IMG/VR virus record: IMGVR_UViG_2724679236_000006
Span: 1-5,330 of that record
Direction: 5' to 3' (one strand)
Source of the DNA: a virus
Lineage: Duplodnaviria; Heunggongvirae; Uroviricota; Caudoviricetes
DNA: 5,330 bases
The position numbers and the translations under genes are program-made. Positions 1-5,330 of the stretch are shown piece after piece (within the stretch, counting starts at the first letter, position 1; every line of letters begins with the position of its first letter). Under the pieces are notes generated by a model, which saw nothing but the letters and a program-made list of their open reading frames with translations, made no database searches and was not told where the DNA came from.

Positions 1-7
1 TATCACC

Positions 8-307
8 TCAAATAAGTGGTTTGCTGCCTAATTTCATTTTCTGGCGACCAACACAAGTCACACCCATTTCACTGCGTGGCTTGCGGTAGTAAATACGGTT
101 CTGTTTACGCTCGACTTCTTCTGCCTTCTTGCAGCGAAGGCTTCCGAGTGATGCTGCTTTATCTGCTCTGACGCAACCAGAGAGCTTTAGCGCAATCTTT
201 CGCGCCAGTCGCTGTTCTTGCATTGCCTGTTCACGTTGAGCCTGTCTGCGTGCTCTGCGGCGATTTCTGGCGTTATCGTCAGCCAGATATGTAATGACTA
301 CTGTCAT
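8..307 (-). CDS. N: Antitermination protein N (lambda N family)
   Basis: 99-aa ORF with Arg-rich motif NARNRRRARRQAQREQ near the N-terminus and a C-terminus (YYRKPRSEMGVTCVGRQKMKLGSKPLI) closely resembling my recollection of lambda N (recalled, not searched). SD GGAGG sits 5 nt upstream of the ATG at 305-307. Lies directly downstream of the nutL-like site and pL-like promoter on the same strand. Confidence 0.85.
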   Translation of the reverse strand: MTVVITYLADDNARNRRRARRQAQREQAMQEQRLARKIALKLSGCVRADKAASLGSLRCKKAEEVERKQNRIYYRKPRSEMGVTCVGRQKMKLGSKPLI

Positions 308-413
308 GTTGACCTCCGATGATTGACTTTGGCGGTGACGCGCCGGGTGCTTATCTTCCGGTTGCCGTCGTGCAGCTGCACTTCACGTCACCCCAAAGCC
401 AACTACTCTTTGG

Positions 414-456
414 TTCCCGCATTTCGGCGGGACAATCCCATCAATGTTAAAGAGCT
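414..456 (-). promoter_or_regulatory. nutL-like N-utilisation site (boxA + boxB hairpin)
   Basis: On the minus strand, boxA-like AGCTCTTTAACA (plus 445-456) is followed 12 nt later by TCCCGCCGAAATGCGGGAA (plus 414-432), a 6-7 bp stem with a GAAA-containing loop. The same 19-mer recurs on the plus strand after cro (2110-2128). Position between pL and N matches lambda nutL. Confidence 0.7.
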
Positions 457-501
457 TGCCAATCTGTTCCGTTTGGCTACCAGCGTCCTGCTGATGGCTA
501 A

Positions 502-530
502 AGAATACTGTAGGTATTTTATTGTGTAAA
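502..530 (-). promoter_or_regulatory. pL-like promoter (-35 TTTACA, -10 TATTCT, 17-bp spacer)
   Basis: Minus-strand hexamers TTTACA (plus 525-530) and TATTCT (plus 502-507) with a 17-bp spacer. The -10 overlaps the edge of OL1 exactly as the pR -10 overlaps OR1, and carries the same hexamer. Predicted TSS near 495, about 40 nt upstream of nutL boxA. Confidence 0.5.
503..519. promoter_or_regulatory. Operator OL1 (17 bp, GAATAC-N5-GTATTT)
   Basis: GAATACTGTAGGTATTT, an imperfect palindrome with the same half-sites and 5-bp central spacer as OR1. Confidence 0.55.
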
Positions 531-544
531 TATCCAAGGTATTT
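528..544. promoter_or_regulatory. Operator OL2 (17 bp)
   Basis: AAATATCCAAGGTATTT; half-sites ATAT/GTAT with a 5-bp spacer, centred 25 bp from OL1. Confidence 0.45.
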
Positions 545-572
545 ATTTTTGGTGAAATAATGATAAGTAAAT

Positions 573-589
573 GAATACAAAGGATATTT
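573..589. promoter_or_regulatory. Operator OL3 candidate (17 bp)
   Basis: GAATACAAAGGATATTT; half-sites ATAC/ATAT with a 5-bp spacer, centred 45 bp from OL2. A weaker intermediate candidate lies at about 555-571 (ATAA-N5-AGTA). Confidence 0.4.
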
Positions 590-673
590 ATTTTTCGGTG
601 TCTGCTTGTTCAGTGCTTTTTATGTGGGATATGTGAAGTGGATCCCGATAGCTATTGCTGCCGGGATTATGGG

Positions 674-1042
674 TTAGTCAGCGAAGGTTAAGACGAGAAT
701 TACCTTAATGATGTCTGCTACAATAGACACGGCCATAGATAAACCAAAGACGATCCAAGCCATAGAGATGTCTTCACTACCATCGTATAGAGTTCCGTAA
801 TCACTGGTGTAAGGCGTAAATGTCGCGCCTTGATACAACAGGTATAAGCTTGATCCATAGAGGATAAATGCAGATATCCCTTGTATTGCTATGATCACTA
901 GAATCATGAAACGAGCTGATCTATGCGCCCAAGCCTGGCTTATTTTTTCTGATAGAGATTTCGCAATAAAAGCATGCGCTAAGCCGTAAATTGTCGAGAT
1001 TGCCAACATCCCAAAAAAGCTTGCTATAGCGGTTCCAACCAT
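674..1042 (-). CDS. Small membrane protein with three hydrophobic helices, unknown function; co-transcribed downstream of cI in the rex-locus position
   Basis: ORF 674..1063 on the same strand as cI. Preferred start is the ATG at 1040-1042 (SD-like AAGGGG 5 nt upstream), 18 nt after the cI stop. The alternative TTG at 1061-1063 overlaps the cI TGA (1060-1062). Three long hydrophobic segments (VGTAIASFFGMLAISTIYGLAHAFIA, FMILVIIAIQGISAFILYGSSLYLLY, ISMAWIVFGLSMAVSIVADIIKVILVLTF) flank an acidic/aromatic loop (TPYTSDYGTLYDGSEDIS). GC content looks lower than the replication genes. No family recognised by eye. Confidence 0.7.
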   Translation of the reverse strand: MVGTAIASFFGMLAISTIYGLAHAFIAKSLSEKISQAWAHRSARFMILVIIAIQGISAFILYGSSLYLLYQGATFTPYTSDYGTLYDGSEDISMAWIVFGLSMAVSIVADIIKVILVLTFAD

Positions 1043-1059
1043 AAGCGCCCCTTGCGTGA

Positions 1060-1776
1060 TCAAACCAGCCTTAGTTTTGTCTCAATTGCAACGCCTATAA
1101 TCTTGCAGTTTCCATTGATTGGCACGAGAGGCCATGCAGGGTTAAGTCCCTTGAGGTATTTATTTCCGCCGTCGATTATCAGCTTCTTGAATGTTGCTTC
1201 GTTAGAGTCAGAAAGTTTTGCTATGACCAAGCTGCCGTTGATCGCCTCCCTTCCGGTATCGAAAAGAACGAATGTTCCCTCTGGAATGCTTAACCCAACC
1301 GGTGCCGTCATTGAATCACCTTCCACTTTAAGCCAGAACGCATTACCTTGAATATGCGCGTCAGACTCAAGCCAAACATCTATGTCTTTAATGGTGTATG
1401 GTTCGCATGCTTCACACCACGAGCCAGCCTGGATACTGCTTAACACCGGATACCTCTTTCCTGCTCTGTATTCCCCTGCATACCTTACGTTGGCATCGCT
1501 CTTAAGGCTTTCTGCCTGTTCTGCAACCTTGGCAGCAATTGACTGGCTAAAATCAGCAATTGAGACTTGCAACAATCGTGCAAAACCAGATGCAACCTCA
1601 ACGTTTAGCGCGTTTCTGCCATTAAGATAATGCCCTACCGCTCCTTGGGTGATACCCAGTTCATCAGCGATTGAGTATTGGGTTATTCCCAATTCTTTCT
1701 TTTTTGACTCATACAAAGCCTTAAGCCGCTTAGCGTCTTCGAGCTGTTCTGTCGTCAGTGATTTTTTATTTTCCAT
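1060..1776 (-). CDS. cI: CI-type phage repressor (N-terminal HTH + C-terminal S24 LexA-like autopeptidase domain)
   Basis: 238 aa. N-terminus MENKKSLTTEQLEDAKRLKALYESKKKELGITQ parallels lambda CI. HTH segment QYSIADELGITQGAVGHYLNG. Ala-Gly candidate cleavage sites (RYAGEY / RAGKRY) in the linker. S24 catalytic motifs GDSM (Ser) and FKKL (Lys). Diverges from cro across an operator region. Confidence 0.93.
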   Translation of the reverse strand: MENKKSLTTEQLEDAKRLKALYESKKKELGITQYSIADELGITQGAVGHYLNGRNALNVEVASGFARLLQVSIADFSQSIAAKVAEQAESLKSDANVRYAGEYRAGKRYPVLSSIQAGSWCEACEPYTIKDIDVWLESDAHIQGNAFWLKVEGDSMTAPVGLSIPEGTFVLFDTGREAINGSLVIAKLSDSNEATFKKLIIDGGNKYLKGLNPAWPLVPINGNCKIIGVAIETKLRLV

Positions 1777-1788
1777 AGCTTAATTCTA
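1777..1788 (-). promoter_or_regulatory. pRM-like -10 (TAGAAT) giving a leaderless or near-leaderless cI transcript
   Basis: Minus-strand TAGAAT (plus 1783-1788) ends 6 nt before the cI ATG (plus 1774-1776), with no SD between them. Matches the lambda arrangement where pRM mRNA begins at the cI AUG. The -10 abuts OR3. Confidence 0.4.
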
Positions 1789-1803
1789 ATAGCTAAGGTA
1801 CTT
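1787..1803. promoter_or_regulatory. Operator OR3 candidate (17 bp, degenerate half-sites ATAG/GTAC)
   Basis: TAATAGCTAAGGTACTT; same 4+5+4 architecture, centred 24 bp from OR2; weaker match to consensus, as expected for an OR3. Confidence 0.4.
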
Positions 1804-1810
1804 AAAATAA

Positions 1811-1827
1811 AAATACCTTGAGTATTG
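1811..1827. promoter_or_regulatory. Operator OR2 (17 bp)
   Basis: AAATACCTTGAGTATTG; half-sites ATAC/GTAT with a 5-bp spacer; overlaps the pR -35. Confidence 0.5.
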
Positions 1828-1853
1828 ATTGTTTTGAATACCTGTAGTATTCT
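1825..1853 (+). promoter_or_regulatory. pR-like promoter (-35 TTGATT, -10 TATTCT, 17-bp spacer)
   Basis: TTGATT (1825-1830) and TATTCT (1848-1853). Predicted TSS near 1860, giving a leader of about 22 nt to the cro ATG. Operator overlap mirrors lambda pR/OR1/OR2. Confidence 0.5.
1836..1852. promoter_or_regulatory. Operator OR1 (17 bp, GAATAC-N5-GTATTC)
   Basis: GAATACCTGTAGTATTC, symmetric at 6 of 8 paired positions; centred 25 bp from OR2; overlaps the pR -10. Confidence 0.6.
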
Positions 1854-1882
1854 TTGTTCATGGTTAATAACGGAGAGTGCAT

Positions 1883-2077
1883 ATGATTCGAATGACACTT
1901 GCCGATTACGCCAAAATCCATGGACAGGCTAAAGCAGCCAGTGACTTTGGTGTAATCCAGTGCGCTATCAGCAAGGCCATTCTGGCAGGCCGTAACATCA
2001 TGGTTACGGTAAAGCCTGATGGCAGTGTGATTGGAGAGGAAGTTCGTCCTTTCCCAAGCAACAAGAAAAACAAATAG
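1883..2077 (+). CDS. cro: Cro-type repressor
   Basis: Translation [62 protein letters not shown] parallels lambda Cro along its whole length (recalled, not searched). SD GGAGAG at 1867-1872. ATG 1883 is preferred over 1877 on SD spacing. Confidence 0.9.
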
Positions 2078-2083
2078 TAACAC

Positions 2084-2128
2084 CGCTCTTTAACAGTCAT
2101 GGTCCTCATTCCCGCCGAAATGCGGGAA
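2084..2128 (+). promoter_or_regulatory. nutR-like site (boxA CGCTCTTTAACA + boxB hairpin)
   Basis: boxA CGCTCTTTAACA at 2084-2095, starting 7 nt after the cro stop. boxB TCCCGCCGAAATGCGGGAA at 2110-2128 is identical to the nutL boxB. Confidence 0.75.
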
Positions 2129-2185
2129 TACAACGCGCATACGTTGATGCGCATAACTTCTTATTTGTTAAGGAAATACTTACAT

Positions 2186-2464
2186 ATGGAACTTACAAGT
2201 ACTCGCAAGAAAGCGAATGCAATTACAAGCAACATCCTGAATCGAATTGCTGTACGTGGTCAGCGAAAGGTTGCCGACGCGTTAGGGATTAATGAATCAC
2301 AAATTTCGCGATGGAAAGACAGCTTCATCCCCAAAATGGGAATGCTTCTGGCTGTTCTTGAATGGGGTGTTGAAGACGAGGAGTTGGCGGAACTGGCTAA
2401 GAAAGTAGCCAGAATGCTGACAAAAGAAAAAGCCCCGAAGAACGGCGAATTCTTCGAGGCTTGA
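2186..2464 (+). CDS. cII: CII-type transcriptional activator
   Basis: 92 aa from the ATG at 2186. ILNRIAVRGQRKVADALGINESQISRWKDSFIPKMGMLLAVLEWGVEDEE aligns with lambda CII (recalled). The ORF-track start at 2099 would overlap nutR and is rejected. SD AAGGA lies upstream. Confidence 0.88.
   Translation: MELTSTRKKANAITSNILNRIAVRGQRKVADALGINESQISRWKDSFIPKMGMLLAVLEWGVEDEELAELAKKVARMLTKEKAPKNGEFFEA
2219..2232 (-). promoter_or_regulatory. pRE-like CII-binding site (TTGC-N6-TTGC) inside the cII 5' end
   Basis: Plus GCAATTACAAGCAA is minus TTGCTTGTAATTGC, a direct TTGC repeat with 6-bp spacing, as at lambda pRE. It sits in codons 12-16 of cII, oriented to drive leftward transcription through cro into cI. 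Confidence 0.5.
2421..2459 (-). terminator. Intrinsic terminator on the minus strand (oop-RNA-like antisense terminator overlapping the cII 3' end)
   Basis: Minus-strand RNA CCUCGAAGAA-UUCGCCG-UUCUUCGGGG folds into a 10-bp stem (one G-U pair) with a 7-nt loop, followed by CUUUUUCUUUUG. No U-tract follows the hairpin on the plus strand, so it is unidirectional. Confidence 0.5.
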
Positions 2465-2498
2465 TGTAGAAAGACTGGATCAATCTACAGGAGTAATT

Positions 2499-2660
2499 AT
2501 GACAAAACGTCGTAAGAAATACCAGGAAAAAGAAGAGATTCGACACCCTGATTTACCTGAGGGATTAGTGGTAGCCGCAGCAAATAACAGGGCGTTCGCA
2601 GAGCGCCTTGTTGGTGTTTACAGACTAGCCAAAGCAGGAGTGAAACATGGGTGTCGTTAA
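2499..2660 (+). CDS. Small basic hypothetical protein (53 aa) between cII and O
   Basis: ORF below the track's length cut-off: [60 protein letters not shown] at 2489-2493, 5 nt before the ATG at 2499. Stop at 2658-2660 overlaps the O start by 14 nt. Confidence 0.35.
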   Translation: MTKRRKKYQEKEEIRHPDLPEGLVVAAANNRAFAERLVGVYRLAKAGVKHGCR

Positions 2661-3477
2661 GTTAGCTGATTACAGGCCTCAACTGGAGGTCGTGGAGCAT
2701 CGCGTGGCAGAACTCGAAGATGGCTACACTCGGACTGCAAACACACTGTTAGAAGCCGCCATGCTTTCTGGGCTTACTCTACATCAGTTACTGATTGTTA
2801 TGGCTGTGTGGCGCAAGACATACGGTTACAACAAAAAAATAGATTGGATCGGAAACGAACAGTTCGCTGAACTCACTGGCATGGCACCAACCAAATGTTC
2901 TACCGCCAAAAACGAGCTTATCAGAATGGGAGTTCTCATTCAGGTGGGGCGTCAAGTTGGTATGAATACAAACATTTCCGAGTGGAAAACGAAAGTTAAC
3001 GGATTTGGTAAAACATTTACCAATTCGGTAAAACAAACCTTCACTAAATCGGTAAAAAGCAATTTACCGAATCAGTCAAACACAAAAGACAATATACAAA
3101 AGACAATAAATACAAATACCCCCTTACCCCCTAACGGGGGCGGCGATGGGCAGGTTAAACCTGAACGTCGCAAGGCAGAACGCATCGACTACGAATCCTT
3201 CCTGAACGCCTACAACACCGAAGTCGGTGACAGACTGCCACACGCTGTTGCGGTCAACGAGAAACGCAAACGCCGCCTGAAGAAAATCATCCCGCAACTG
3301 AAAACGCCAAACGTGGACGGTTTCAGAGCGTATGTCAGGGCGTTTGTGCATCAGGCCAAGCCGTTTTACTTCGGAGACAACGACACGGGCTGGACGGCAG
3401 ATTTTGATTACCTGCTGAGGGAAGATTCGTTAACGGGAGTACGGGAAGGGAAGTTTGCAGACAGGGGAATTGCATGA
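2647..3477 (+). CDS. O: Replication initiator, lambda O family (ori-binding)
   Basis: 276 aa. [18 protein letters not shown]...[16 protein letters not shown]...[18 protein letters not shown]...NTNISEW parallels the lambda O N-terminal domain (recalled). Iteron and AT-rich ori sequence embedded mid-gene. In-frame stop immediately upstream of the ATG; SD AGGAG at 2633-2637. Stop overlaps the helicase start (ATGA at 3474-3477). Confidence 0.9.
3005..3120. repeat. Origin-like iterons plus AT-rich tract inside the O gene
   Basis: Three copies of GGTAAAA (3007, 3027, 3051). Two sit in near-palindromic iterons: TTGGTAAAACATTTACCAA (3005-3023) and TCGGTAAAAAGCAATTTACCGA (3049-3070). Followed by an A-rich tract at 3073-3117. 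They encode a low-complexity linker ([16 protein letters not shown]...), as in lambda. Confidence 0.6.
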
Positions 3478-4850
3478 AACAGGATATCGAAGCGAGCGTT
3501 ATCGGTGGCCTGCTGATTGGTGGATTAACACCAGCCGCCAGTGACGTTCTGGCAACGCTTGAGCCGGAAGCGTTTTCAATTCCGCTCTACCGGAAAGCCT
3601 TCGAGGTTATCCGCAAGCAGGCGAGAAACAGAAACCTAATCGACGCACTGATGGTTGCTGAGGAATGCGGAGAGGAGCATTTCACGTCAATCCTGATGAC
3701 CAGCAAAAACTGCCCGAGCGCCGCAAACCTGAAGGGATATGCCGGAATGGTCGCGGATAACTATCACCGCCGTCTGGTGCTGGAAATCATGGATGAAATG
3801 CGTGAACCAATTCAGAGCGGAACCATCGACGCATCGAGTCAGGCGATGGATGAACTTGTAAAGCGTCTTTCAGCCATCAGAAAGCCCCGTGACGAGGTTA
3901 AACCTGTACGGTTAGGGGAAATCATCACTGACTACACTGACACGCTTGACAGGCGTCTGAGGAACGGAGAAGAGTCAGATGCCCTGAAGACCGGAATCGA
4001 AGAACTTGATGCCATCACCGGAGGGATGAACGCAGAAGACCTGGTTATTATCGCCGCTCGTCCTGGTATGGGGAAAACCGAACTGGCGCTGAAGATTGCC
4101 GAAGGCGTTGCAAGCCGCGTTATCCCTGGTTCTGACGTTCAGCGCGGAGTGTTGATTTTCTCGATGGAAATGAGCGCATTGCAGATTGCAGAGCGAAGCA
4201 TCGCCAACGCCGGGAGGATGTCGGTTAGCGTGCTGCGAAATCCTGCATCGATGGATGACGAAGGCTGGGCGCGCGTTGCTAACAGCATGAGTCAGCTTGC
4301 AGATTTGGATGTATGGGTAGTCGATGCCTCGCGGTTATCGGTTGAAGAAATTCGCTCAATTGCAGAGCGGCACAAACAGGAAAATCCAAACCTGTCACTA
4401 ATCATGGTGGATTATCTTGGACTGATTGAGAAGCCGAAAGCAGACCGCAACGACCTCGCAATTGCTCACATCTCAGGAAGCCTGAAGGCGATGGCGAAAG
4501 ACCTGAAAACGCCTGTTATCTCCCTGAGTCAGCTTTCACGCGATGTTGAGAAGCGACCAAACAAACGCCCGACAAACGCAGATTTGCGTGATTCAGGAAG
4601 CATTGAACAGGACGCAGACTCAATCATCATGCTCTATCGGGAAGCGGTATATGACGAGAACAGTAGCGCCGCGCCATTTGCTGAAATCATCGTGACGAAA
4701 AACCGTTTTGGCTCACTTGGTACGGTTTACCAGCTGTTCTGCAACGGACACTTTGTTGCATGTGACCAGGATGAAGCCAGACAGATTTGCACAGCATCAA
4801 ATGCACCTGCTGCGCGTGGCAGACGATATGCACAAGGGGCTGACGTATGA
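3474..4850 (+). CDS. Replicative DNA helicase, DnaB family
   Basis: 458 aa. Walker [10 protein letters not shown], Walker B-like LIMVDYLGL, and [33 protein letters not shown] typical of DnaB C-terminal motifs. Translationally coupled to O. This is a P22 gene-12-type arrangement rather than a lambda P helicase loader. Confidence 0.9.
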
Positions 4851-4875
4851 CAATCTACATCACTGAGCTAATAAC

Positions 4876-4906
4876 AGGCCTGCTGGTAATCGCAGGCCTT
4901 TTTATT
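4876..4906 (+). terminator. Rho-independent terminator (tR2-like) after the helicase gene
   Basis: AGGCCTGC-TGGTAATC-GCAGGCCT (8-bp perfect stem, 8-nt loop) followed by TTTTTATT, 26 nt after the helicase stop. Confidence 0.7.
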
Positions 4907-4921
4907 GGGGGAGAGTAAATC

Positions 4922-5248
4922 GTGGCTGACTGGCAAATACCAATCATCATTCTTGCCGGAGCTTCGCTGGTTGCTGGCTTTATCCTGCTGAAAAAGCATA
5001 AAGACCGTGATCAAAAAGTCGAAGTTCTCTATGGGTATCCAGCGAACAGCACAACATGGCTGACCATTTACCACTACCGAAAATCAGGACGCTGGGTATT
5101 CGAATGGGATGATCTGTTCGCTGACAGGCGACCGAAGTCATTGGGAGACATCAGCGAATGCATGATGTTTGAAGAAAGAAAATCCGGCGCAACTCGAGAA
5201 GAGTTTAACGAAGCGTGGAGGCGATTAAGTGAGAGAGGGTATCAATGA
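4922..5248 (+). CDS. Hypothetical protein with N-terminal transmembrane anchor (108 aa)
   Basis: GTG start at 4922 with SD GGGGGAGAG at 4906-4914. N-terminal hydrophobic helix IPIIILAGASLVAGFILL followed by a KKHKDRDQK stop-transfer-like stretch, then a charged and aromatic soluble domain. No family recognised. Confidence 0.55.
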   Translation: MADWQIPIIILAGASLVAGFILLKKHKDRDQKVEVLYGYPANSTTWLTIYHYRKSGRWVFEWDDLFADRRPKSLGDISECMMFEERKSGATREEFNEAWRRLSERGYQ

Positions 5249-5270
5249 GCAGAATTAAGTCGAGGTAACG

Positions 5271-5330
5271 ATGAAGCAAATATACATGCTTCGCAACGAA
5301 GCAATCAGAAATAACGCCATAGACGCAATA
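5271..5330 (+). CDS. ninB: 5' end of a downstream gene, possibly NinB/Orf-family recombination protein (partial, runs off the window)
   Basis: ATG at 5271 with SD GAGGT upstream. The first 20 codons (MKQIYMLRNEAIRNNAIDAI) loosely resemble the lambda NinB N-terminus (recalled). Too short to be sure. Confidence 0.35.
   Translation, partial: MKQIYMLRNEAIRNNAIDAI

Follow-up and report, generated by a model that had tools for sequence, protein, structure and literature searches.

The 5,330-nucleotide window analyzed here, positions 1 to 5,330 of IMG/VR virus record IMGVR_UViG_2724679236_000006, comes from a lambdoid phage or prophage and spans its early-control and replication region; the gene under study, hkaS, lies on its minus strand directly behind the cI repressor gene, in the slot between cI and the left operators. 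hkaS is a real gene under purifying selection, encodes a predicted three-pass inner-membrane protein of 122 amino acids (aa), follows a single type of cI, and is, by the sequence and profile comparisons reported below, an orphan with no homology to anything characterized. We tentatively favor a role for HkaS as an exclusion factor that is expressed in the lysogen and blocks genome entry at the inner membrane, a function that we regard as quite possible without calling it probable. An earlier reading of the window made from its letters alone (here, the original prediction) had framed the gene as cI-operon cargo in the rex slot; this framing is sound, and the proposal of an exclusion factor, made by analogy, is reasonable and would not surprise specialists.

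Selection on hkaS and its start codon

Homologs of HkaS at 82% identity (Hafnia-type), 61% (Salmonella), and 52% (a fourth lineage) are all exactly 122 codons long. Relative to the Hafnia-type allele, the hkaS of the window has a synonymous divergence (dS) of 0.72 and a ratio of nonsynonymous to synonymous divergence (dN/dS) of 0.14, and synonymous sites are saturated with respect to the two more distant lineages. Across seven aligned sequences, 43 of the 122 residues are invariant, including Q54 in the second transmembrane segment (TM2), the D110/K113 pair in TM3, and W38, H40, and R44 in the predicted cytoplasmic loop; the eight C-terminal residues, ILVLTFAD, are likewise invariant at all positions but one. 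Every E. coli-type copy (82/82) is intact and full length, and these copies comprise 36 nucleotide alleles and 21 protein variants, whose substitutions are conservative. A spurious or decaying open reading frame (ORF) without function might be suspected, given that annotation has never gone beyond "hypothetical" and that homologs are confined to one narrow family, but the dN/dS value, the 82 intact copies, the retention of length and of 43 residues across lineages with saturated synonymous sites, a conserved Shine-Dalgarno sequence, and a confident fold prediction leave this possibility effectively excluded.

Two starts are available to the ORF on the minus strand: a TTG that yields 129 aa (674-1063) and an ATG that yields 122 aa (674-1042). 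The stop codon of cI (TGA, 1062-1060) is overlapped by the TTG by 2 nucleotides (nt), and the ATG lies 17 nt beyond it. We take the ATG as the real start because a Shine-Dalgarno sequence, AAGGGG, stands 5 nt upstream of it, because a purine-rich sequence is kept at this distance in four diverged lineages, and because 122 aa is the length both of the corresponding PHROG profile and of the intact database members. In the Salmonella lineage, moreover, an in-frame TAA immediately precedes the ATG, so that an N-terminal extension is impossible there. On the same grounds we reject the TTG start with its 129-aa product, and we also reject a plus-strand gene beneath hkaS, where ORFs reach only 30 to 32 aa. 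The original prediction had placed an ORF of about 122 to 129 aa directly behind cI on the same strand: the placement and the shorter length hold, and the longer length does not.

One stretch of hkaS is also unusual at the nucleotide level. At 683-697 (minus strand, codons 117 to 121), about 14 nt reading GTyTTAACCTTCGC are near-identical in four lineages that are otherwise saturated at synonymous sites; all four share TTA ACC TTC at codons 118 to 120, against an overall figure of just 9 identical codons among the 48 that can be compared. Overlapping the C-terminal ILVLTFAD, the stretch may serve as an element of RNA or DNA, or it may mark a recombination boundary.

Catalog status and search for relatives

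The original prediction called the protein unclassified, and here it has to be corrected: the sequence has been cataloged since the HK620 genome record, with no function assigned. HkaS is 96.7% identical to the product of hkaS of coliphage HK620 (GenBank AF335538, "unknown") and belongs to PHROG 6534, which is labeled unknown function (phrog_6534, E value of 7.4e-79 over residues 1 to 122 of the 122-position profile). Counting duplicate RefSeq and GenBank entries, 16 phage records carry the gene; the phages are HK620, HK630, HK140, mEpX2, HF4s, HZ41, 611R6, phi296, phi367, and two Stx2c phages. It is also present in 146 of 5,426 complete E. coli genomes (approximately 2.7%), as a single chromosomal copy that is always annotated as a "hypothetical protein" adjoining a "LexA family" gene, and its hosts include commensal, Shiga toxin-producing (STEC), and animal E. 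coli.

Beyond this family, relatives were not recovered. No match to HkaS exceeded the curated thresholds of Pfam or NCBIfam; subthreshold hits to Cation_ATPase_C (19 bits versus a cutoff of 27), TssN, and DHHC were obtained with close members only and were dismissed as compositional. A word-indexed search of 5.8 billion clusters returned 12 clusters, all of the HkaS family, and a profile search of 1.84 billion representatives at 50% identity returned only the cluster of HkaS itself and a 44-aa fragment. hkaS is absent from the GTDB species-representative genomes, a sequence search of the PDB with HkaS was empty, fold searches gave nothing specific, and Rfam detected nothing within the window. 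The admission in the original prediction that the protein could not be placed in a known family is thus borne out, with no match to any superinfection exclusion (Sie), abortive infection (Abi), or defense family.

Predicted structure and topology

HkaS has a mass of 13.2 kDa and a grand average of hydropathy of 0.97, and Kyte-Doolittle windows exceed 1.6 at residues 1-27, 42-68, and 91-122. From the seven-sequence alignment, AlphaFold2 predicts helices at residues 2-29, 31-38, 41-73, and 89-121 together with a small beta-hairpin at about 78-86, and does so confidently (mean predicted local distance difference test score of 92.3; predicted template modeling score of 0.79). The resulting layout runs from TM1 (2-29) through a basic, predicted cytoplasmic loop (28-44), which includes the short helix 31-38, to TM2 (41-73), and from there through a predicted periplasmic loop (73-91) with the beta-hairpin to TM3 (89-121). 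Loop 28-44 contains K28, K33, R41, and R44 and is positively charged in all lineages (net charge, +3 to +5); loop 73-91 contains, in the window, D81, D87, E90, D91, four of the seven tyrosines, and no lysine or arginine, and its net charge ranges from -1 to -4 across lineages, with almost no basic residues. Since the first loop is basic and the second acidic, the positive-inside rule predicts an N-out, C-in topology with loop 1 inside and loop 2 outside. Both structural features named by the original prediction, the three long hydrophobic helices and the acidic loop rich in Tyr and Asp, are recovered by these analyses.

Conservation is distributed unevenly over this layout. In a pattern that rests on only five lineages, the predicted periplasmic loop is the least conserved part (4 of 19 residues invariant [21%]; mean identity, 51%), the predicted cytoplasmic loop is the most conserved (9 of 17 residues [53%]; mean identity, 71%), and the helix cores are better conserved than the periplasmic loop.

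Linkage to one repressor type

We collected 90 hkaS loci from IMG/VR, NCBI, ENA, and Logan contigs and the HK620 record, 89 of which include upstream DNA. A cI of the same type (at least 86% identity) ends 17 to 20 nt before hkaS in all 89, and in the phage collection the 16 records with a cI of at least 99% identity are exactly the 16 with hkaS. By contrast with this fixed pair, the N, cII, O, and helicase genes beside it are mosaic among the loci, and the pair itself occurs in Lederbergvirus (HK620), Lambdavirus (HK630), Hendrixvirinae (HK140 and mEpX2), and Sepvirinae (phi296).

Gene order points to shared transcription. Lambda has the order cI-rexA-rexB-OL and the HK620 record the order cI-hkaS-tIMM-OL3-1/pL-nutL-N, and the window agrees with HK620. 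An intrinsic terminator between cI and hkaS was rejected, as a consensus scan of the minus strand found no terminator-like site there. Because the 17-nt gap is free of such a site and the HK620 record puts tIMM after hkaS, the gene is most likely the second cistron of the cI transcript made from pRM or pRE; by analogy to the organization of lambda and HK620, pRM in the region between cI and cro would drive cI-hkaS in the lysogen. On the rex-slot position, on cotranscription with cI (as the most likely arrangement), and on the recurrence of homologs beside cI in other prophages, the original prediction is upheld.

It had also read the lower GC content of the gene as a sign of a swapped-in accessory gene. 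The GC content is indeed lower (41.7% in hkaS, 45.6% in cI, and 52.1% in the helicase gene), but cI is low as well, as is the whole immunity module; the gradient is too small to make a case for a recent acquisition, and an AT bias is to be expected in the gene of a membrane protein that has so much Ile, Phe, and Tyr. hkaS co-diverges with its cI/cro type in the E. coli, Hafnia-type, Salmonella, and fourth lineages, and the next-nearest repressors have other contents in the slot: that of Serratia phage OS31 (71% identity) is followed by no ORF, and that of Erwinia phage 49 (65%) by an unrelated 200-aa ORF. The slot of P22 is empty. Given the co-divergence and the differing slot contents of the next-nearest repressors, hkaS has, on sequence grounds, long been a stable part of one immunity type and is not a recent insertion.

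So strict a linkage could mean that HkaS acts not in defense but on the lysis-lysogeny switch or on prophage stability, through repressor cleavage, induction, or establishment. The single-cI linkage (89/89 loci and 16/16 phage records, with N, cII, O, and P mosaic) would suit such a role, as would the fact that the most conserved parts of HkaS, loop 28-44 and the C-terminal ILVLTFAD, are predicted to face the cytoplasm. Precedents exist: Hex, in the same slot and linked to cI, is specific to its own repressor type and protects the 434 repressor from RecA (PMC3564112), and RexA and RexB are reported to assist the lysogenic-to-lytic transition (preprint 10.1101/2021.04.19.439022). The 17-nt spacing alone nevertheless accounts for the linkage, since a gap of this size leaves no room for recombination; a near-fully buried protein offers little surface to a DNA-bound repressor or to RecA, and HkaS shows no similarity to Hex (hhalign probability, 0.08%). 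We consider a switch function improbable.

A narrower form of the same idea, which we judge very unlikely, makes HkaS a membrane-embedded input to the CI/Cro decision that signals the state of the membrane or envelope, or an infection at the membrane. It would act through the conserved cytoplasmic loop (SxKIxQxWxHRxARF) and the C-terminal ILVLTFAD, perhaps by way of CI stability or a membrane protease, and would explain why the bond between hkaS and cI persists past synonymous saturation amid recombining surroundings. If true, such a membrane-to-repressor link would be a new kind of input to the lambdoid switch.

Proposed exclusion at the inner membrane

In the function that we favor, HkaS would be made constitutively in the lysogen, reside in the cytoplasmic membrane, and hinder a membrane step of infection by heteroimmune phages; the step that we favor is the one at which the incoming genome crosses the inner membrane. 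Its target would be either a host entry component or the ejection or tape-measure conduit of the phage itself; as four virion types carry the module, the target would not be tied to the carrier virion and would be a component of the host or of the foreign phage. By analogy, the slot provides a strong prior for such a role: exclusion of heterologous phages is common to the reviewed cI-operon cargos, namely, lambda RexAB, 933W Stk, and 434 Hex (PMC3564112). That a membrane protein in this position can be expressed at high levels is documented in E. coli LF82, where, in lysogen RNA sequencing, the membrane protein that occupies the slot in prophage Perceval exceeded the prophage background 81-fold, more than any other Perceval gene (PMC9928086).

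The build of the protein bears on the step that would be blocked. HkaS lacks a soluble domain, having only loops of 17 and 19 residues, and lacks a partner gene; without a soluble domain there is nothing obvious to sense infection, and an entry block is therefore favored over Abi. In this respect HkaS is closer to P22 SieA (PMC10883804) than to RexB, which depends on RexA. T4 Imm and P22 SieA exemplify small polytopic inner-membrane proteins with such a build, which typically act by blocking entry. The variability of the periplasmic loop, as modeled, is in keeping with a surface that faces outward, encounters changing phage components, and is under diversifying pressure.

The Perceval slot (L097:33309-34859 in our collection) contains a 340-aa ORF and the 168-aa membrane protein in a RexAB-like layout, the annotation of each going no further than hypothetical or transmembrane. 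We rejected this transmembrane protein as an HkaS, given its length of 168 aa and its position behind a 340-aa gene, and hhalign gave a probability below 1% for the two. The small RNA svsR (PMC12803456), which lies at the 3' end of a cI gene, has no connection with the present finding.

A number of results weigh against exclusion. PADLOC yielded no match to HkaS at an E value of 10 or less, RexAB included, and PHROGs yielded only its own family, with no Sie family at the same threshold. The comparisons with RexB, SieA, and SieB that the original prediction had proposed were run with hhalign (profile-sequence comparisons in all cases) and fell below 1% throughout, at 0.7% for lambda RexB, 0.3% for P22 SieA, and 0.05% for P22 SieB; P22 gp13, a class I holin, gave 0.45%, and 434 Hex gave the value cited above. 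Occupancy of the slot is no proof of exclusion, since it holds a PagP-like gene in phage Huey, and P22 and OS31 do without an occupant. Hex, for its part, also stabilizes the repressor (PMC3564112). At an equal dS of about 0.72 in the Hafnia-type comparison, hkaS evolves 4 to 5 times faster than cI at nonsynonymous sites (dN of 0.098 versus 0.022; dN/dS of cI, 0.03), which could reflect mere weaker constraint on a membrane protein, and the small number of lineages behind the loop comparison counts on the same side. No paper on hkaS, and no expression or phenotype data for it, turned up in the searchable literature.

The absence of a sensor also bears on Abi, in which HkaS would, like RexB or a holin, oligomerize into a gated pore that depolarizes the membrane upon superinfection, so that the cell dies before phage release. 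The slot is that of lambda rexB, the three transmembrane segments and N-out/C-in topology are those of class I holins, and the invariant polar and charged residues Q54, D110, and K113 could line a pore. Yet RexB needs RexA, and only hkaS lies between cI and OL; the protein has neither a sensor partner nor a soluble infection-sensing domain. Holins typically have a charged C-terminal tail, and HkaS, which ends in LTFAD, has none; the hhalign values for RexB and gp13 lend no support, and an ungated pore made constitutively from pRM would be toxic. We therefore regard an Abi pore as quite unlikely.

Lysogenic conversion unrelated to phages, as immunity against a membrane-active bacteriocin or as modulation of a host transporter or of envelope stress, is also unlikely, if with a real chance of being correct. 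Nondefense cargo does occur in or near the slot (the PagP-like gene after cI in Huey; sitABCD and porin genes in Perceval), and hkaS is broadly distributed among commensal, STEC, and animal E. coli. A protein of about 120 aa with three transmembrane segments also has the general build of the immunity proteins to pore-forming colicins. Against this, HkaS matches no colicin immunity or other family in Pfam or NCBIfam, no toxin gene is nearby, and the ColE1-type immunity protein has the opposite topology to the one predicted for HkaS.

Organization of the window

The closest records to the window are Escherichia phages HZ41 and vB_EcoP-611R6 (approximately 98% identity over 85 to 86% of the window), followed by Stx2c-converting phages. 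Its features are listed in Table 1.

TABLE 1 Genes and control elements in the window
Feature	Position	Strand	Description
N antiterminator	8-307	-	phrog_271; first gene of the pL operon
nutL boxB hairpin	~416-432	-	
OL operators and pL	502-589	-	Operator-like 17-mers at 573-589, 528-544, and 503-519; left edge of the slot
pL	530-502	-	-35 TTTACA (530-525), 17-nt spacer, -10 TATTCT (507-502); consensus scan
GC-rich hairpin	642-667	-	Begins 7 nt past the hkaS stop; no U-run
hkaS coding sequence	674-1042	-	122 aa; TAA stop at 676-674; predicted three-pass inner-membrane protein
cI-hkaS intercistronic spacer	1043-1059	-	17 nt; Shine-Dalgarno AAGGGG at 1053-1048
cI repressor	1060-1776	-	HTH_3 and Peptidase_S24; first cistron; 99.6 to 100% identical to cI of HK620, mEpX2, HK140, and HK630
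OR/pRM/pR	1777-1876	.	28% GC; operator 17-mers of the AAATACC...GTATT type
cro	1877-2077		
cII	2186-2464		
53-aa ORF	2499-2660		phrog_1331
O-like initiator with iterons	2647-3477		
DnaB-like helicase	3474-4850		
108-aa ORF	4922-5248		phrog_5903, unknown function; hydrophobic N terminus

Several elements of the left side of the slot merit description. The hairpin behind hkaS has counterparts in the Salmonella and fourth lineages (loci L002 and L006), where different hairpins stand at the same place, none with a U-run. It may be the 3'-end or terminator structure of the cI-hkaS RNA, and given the missing U-run, perhaps a conserved structural 3' end in place of an intrinsic terminator of the classical kind. 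The 17-mer AAATATCCTTTGTATTC at 573-589 (minus strand) has both half-sites, AAATA...GTATTC, in common with OL1 (503-519) and is kept in all four diverged hkaS lineages, whereas its surroundings are not. In the HK620 record the stretch carries the label tIMM, and OL3 is located elsewhere; from its sequence, it looks like an additional or misassigned candidate CI operator.

Farther left, the same boxB-like hairpin, CCCGCCGAAATGCGGGAA, occurs at 416-432 (minus strand, nutL) and at 2107-2125 (plus strand, nutR), in keeping with the N protein (phrog_271) that this phage encodes. Among otherwise near-identical E. coli prophages (loci L014-L093), hkaS and N lie approximately 370, 460, 570 to 620, 710, or 830 nt apart, which implies insertions or deletions of about 90 to 450 bp in the pL-nutL-N leader.

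On the right side, a strong terminator-like hairpin at 2430-2462 (minus strand; 14 pairs and a T-run) lies antisense at the 3' end of cII, where lambda and P22 have their oop RNA terminator. Inside the O-like gene, four iterons of about 23 nt, spaced 20 to 24 nt apart, occupy 2991-3080 and would be the expected replication origin by analogy to HK620, whose annotation puts rep_origin inside O. A clear intrinsic terminator (4876-4899, plus strand), with an 8-bp GC-rich stem followed by TTTTTATT, separates the helicase gene from the 108-aa ORF.

Comparison with known systems

Few phage genes are expressed continuously in lysogens, and those cotranscribed with the repressor are among them; RexAB, Stk, and Hex have each revealed a distinct mechanism of exclusion or switch tuning. 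HkaS is a compact, single-gene occupant of this slot that lacks relatives and is also found in Stx-converting prophages, in Salmonella, and in a Hafnia-type lineage. Should HkaS prove to exclude phages, it would represent a new minimal inner-membrane defense family, with relevance to host range in phage therapy and to prophage competition in STEC; otherwise, hkaS remains a lysogenic-conversion gene that lends itself to a clean test.

Of the known systems, lambda RexB shares with HkaS the slot between cI and OL, the strand of cI, and the character of a small polytopic inner-membrane protein expected in the lysogen. The two have no sequence relationship, however, and differ in size (144 aa in RexB versus 122 aa with three transmembrane segments in HkaS); RexB has four transmembrane helices, and HkaS lacks a RexA-like partner. 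P22 SieA is, as HkaS would be, an inner-membrane protein of small size that the prophage expresses and that has virtually no soluble domain, the membrane build of HkaS being predicted and its expression read from its operon position. T4 Imm is a further inner-membrane exclusion protein that blocks entry. SieA, which acts on ejection proteins (PMC10883804), is transcribed from its own promoter far from the repressor, whereas hkaS lies in the repressor operon, and the two are not homologous.

A parallel in gene arrangement is 434 Hex, also called "repressor protection protein" and named for its heterologous exclusion of P22 (PMC3564112): a single gene of approximately 130 aa, transcribed from pRM, that overlaps or abuts a related S24 repressor (52% identity). 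Hex differs in belonging to PHROG 2651 rather than 6534 and in having a polar body behind a single hydrophobic, signal-like segment at the N terminus, in place of three transmembrane segments. Hex (L012:2109-2513) starts with the signal peptide-like MIRIAALLSILLTTSANSEC..., yet is reported to act on RecA-stimulated cleavage in the cytoplasm, which looks like a mismatch between its N terminus and its site of action.

The class I holins (lambda S and P22 gp13) resemble HkaS in predicted architecture, with three transmembrane segments, an N-out/C-in topology, and a length of about 100 to 120 aa. HkaS departs from them in lacking both the charged C-terminal tail and the dual start typical of lambda S, and its gene sits in the operon of lysogeny and not in a lysis cassette.

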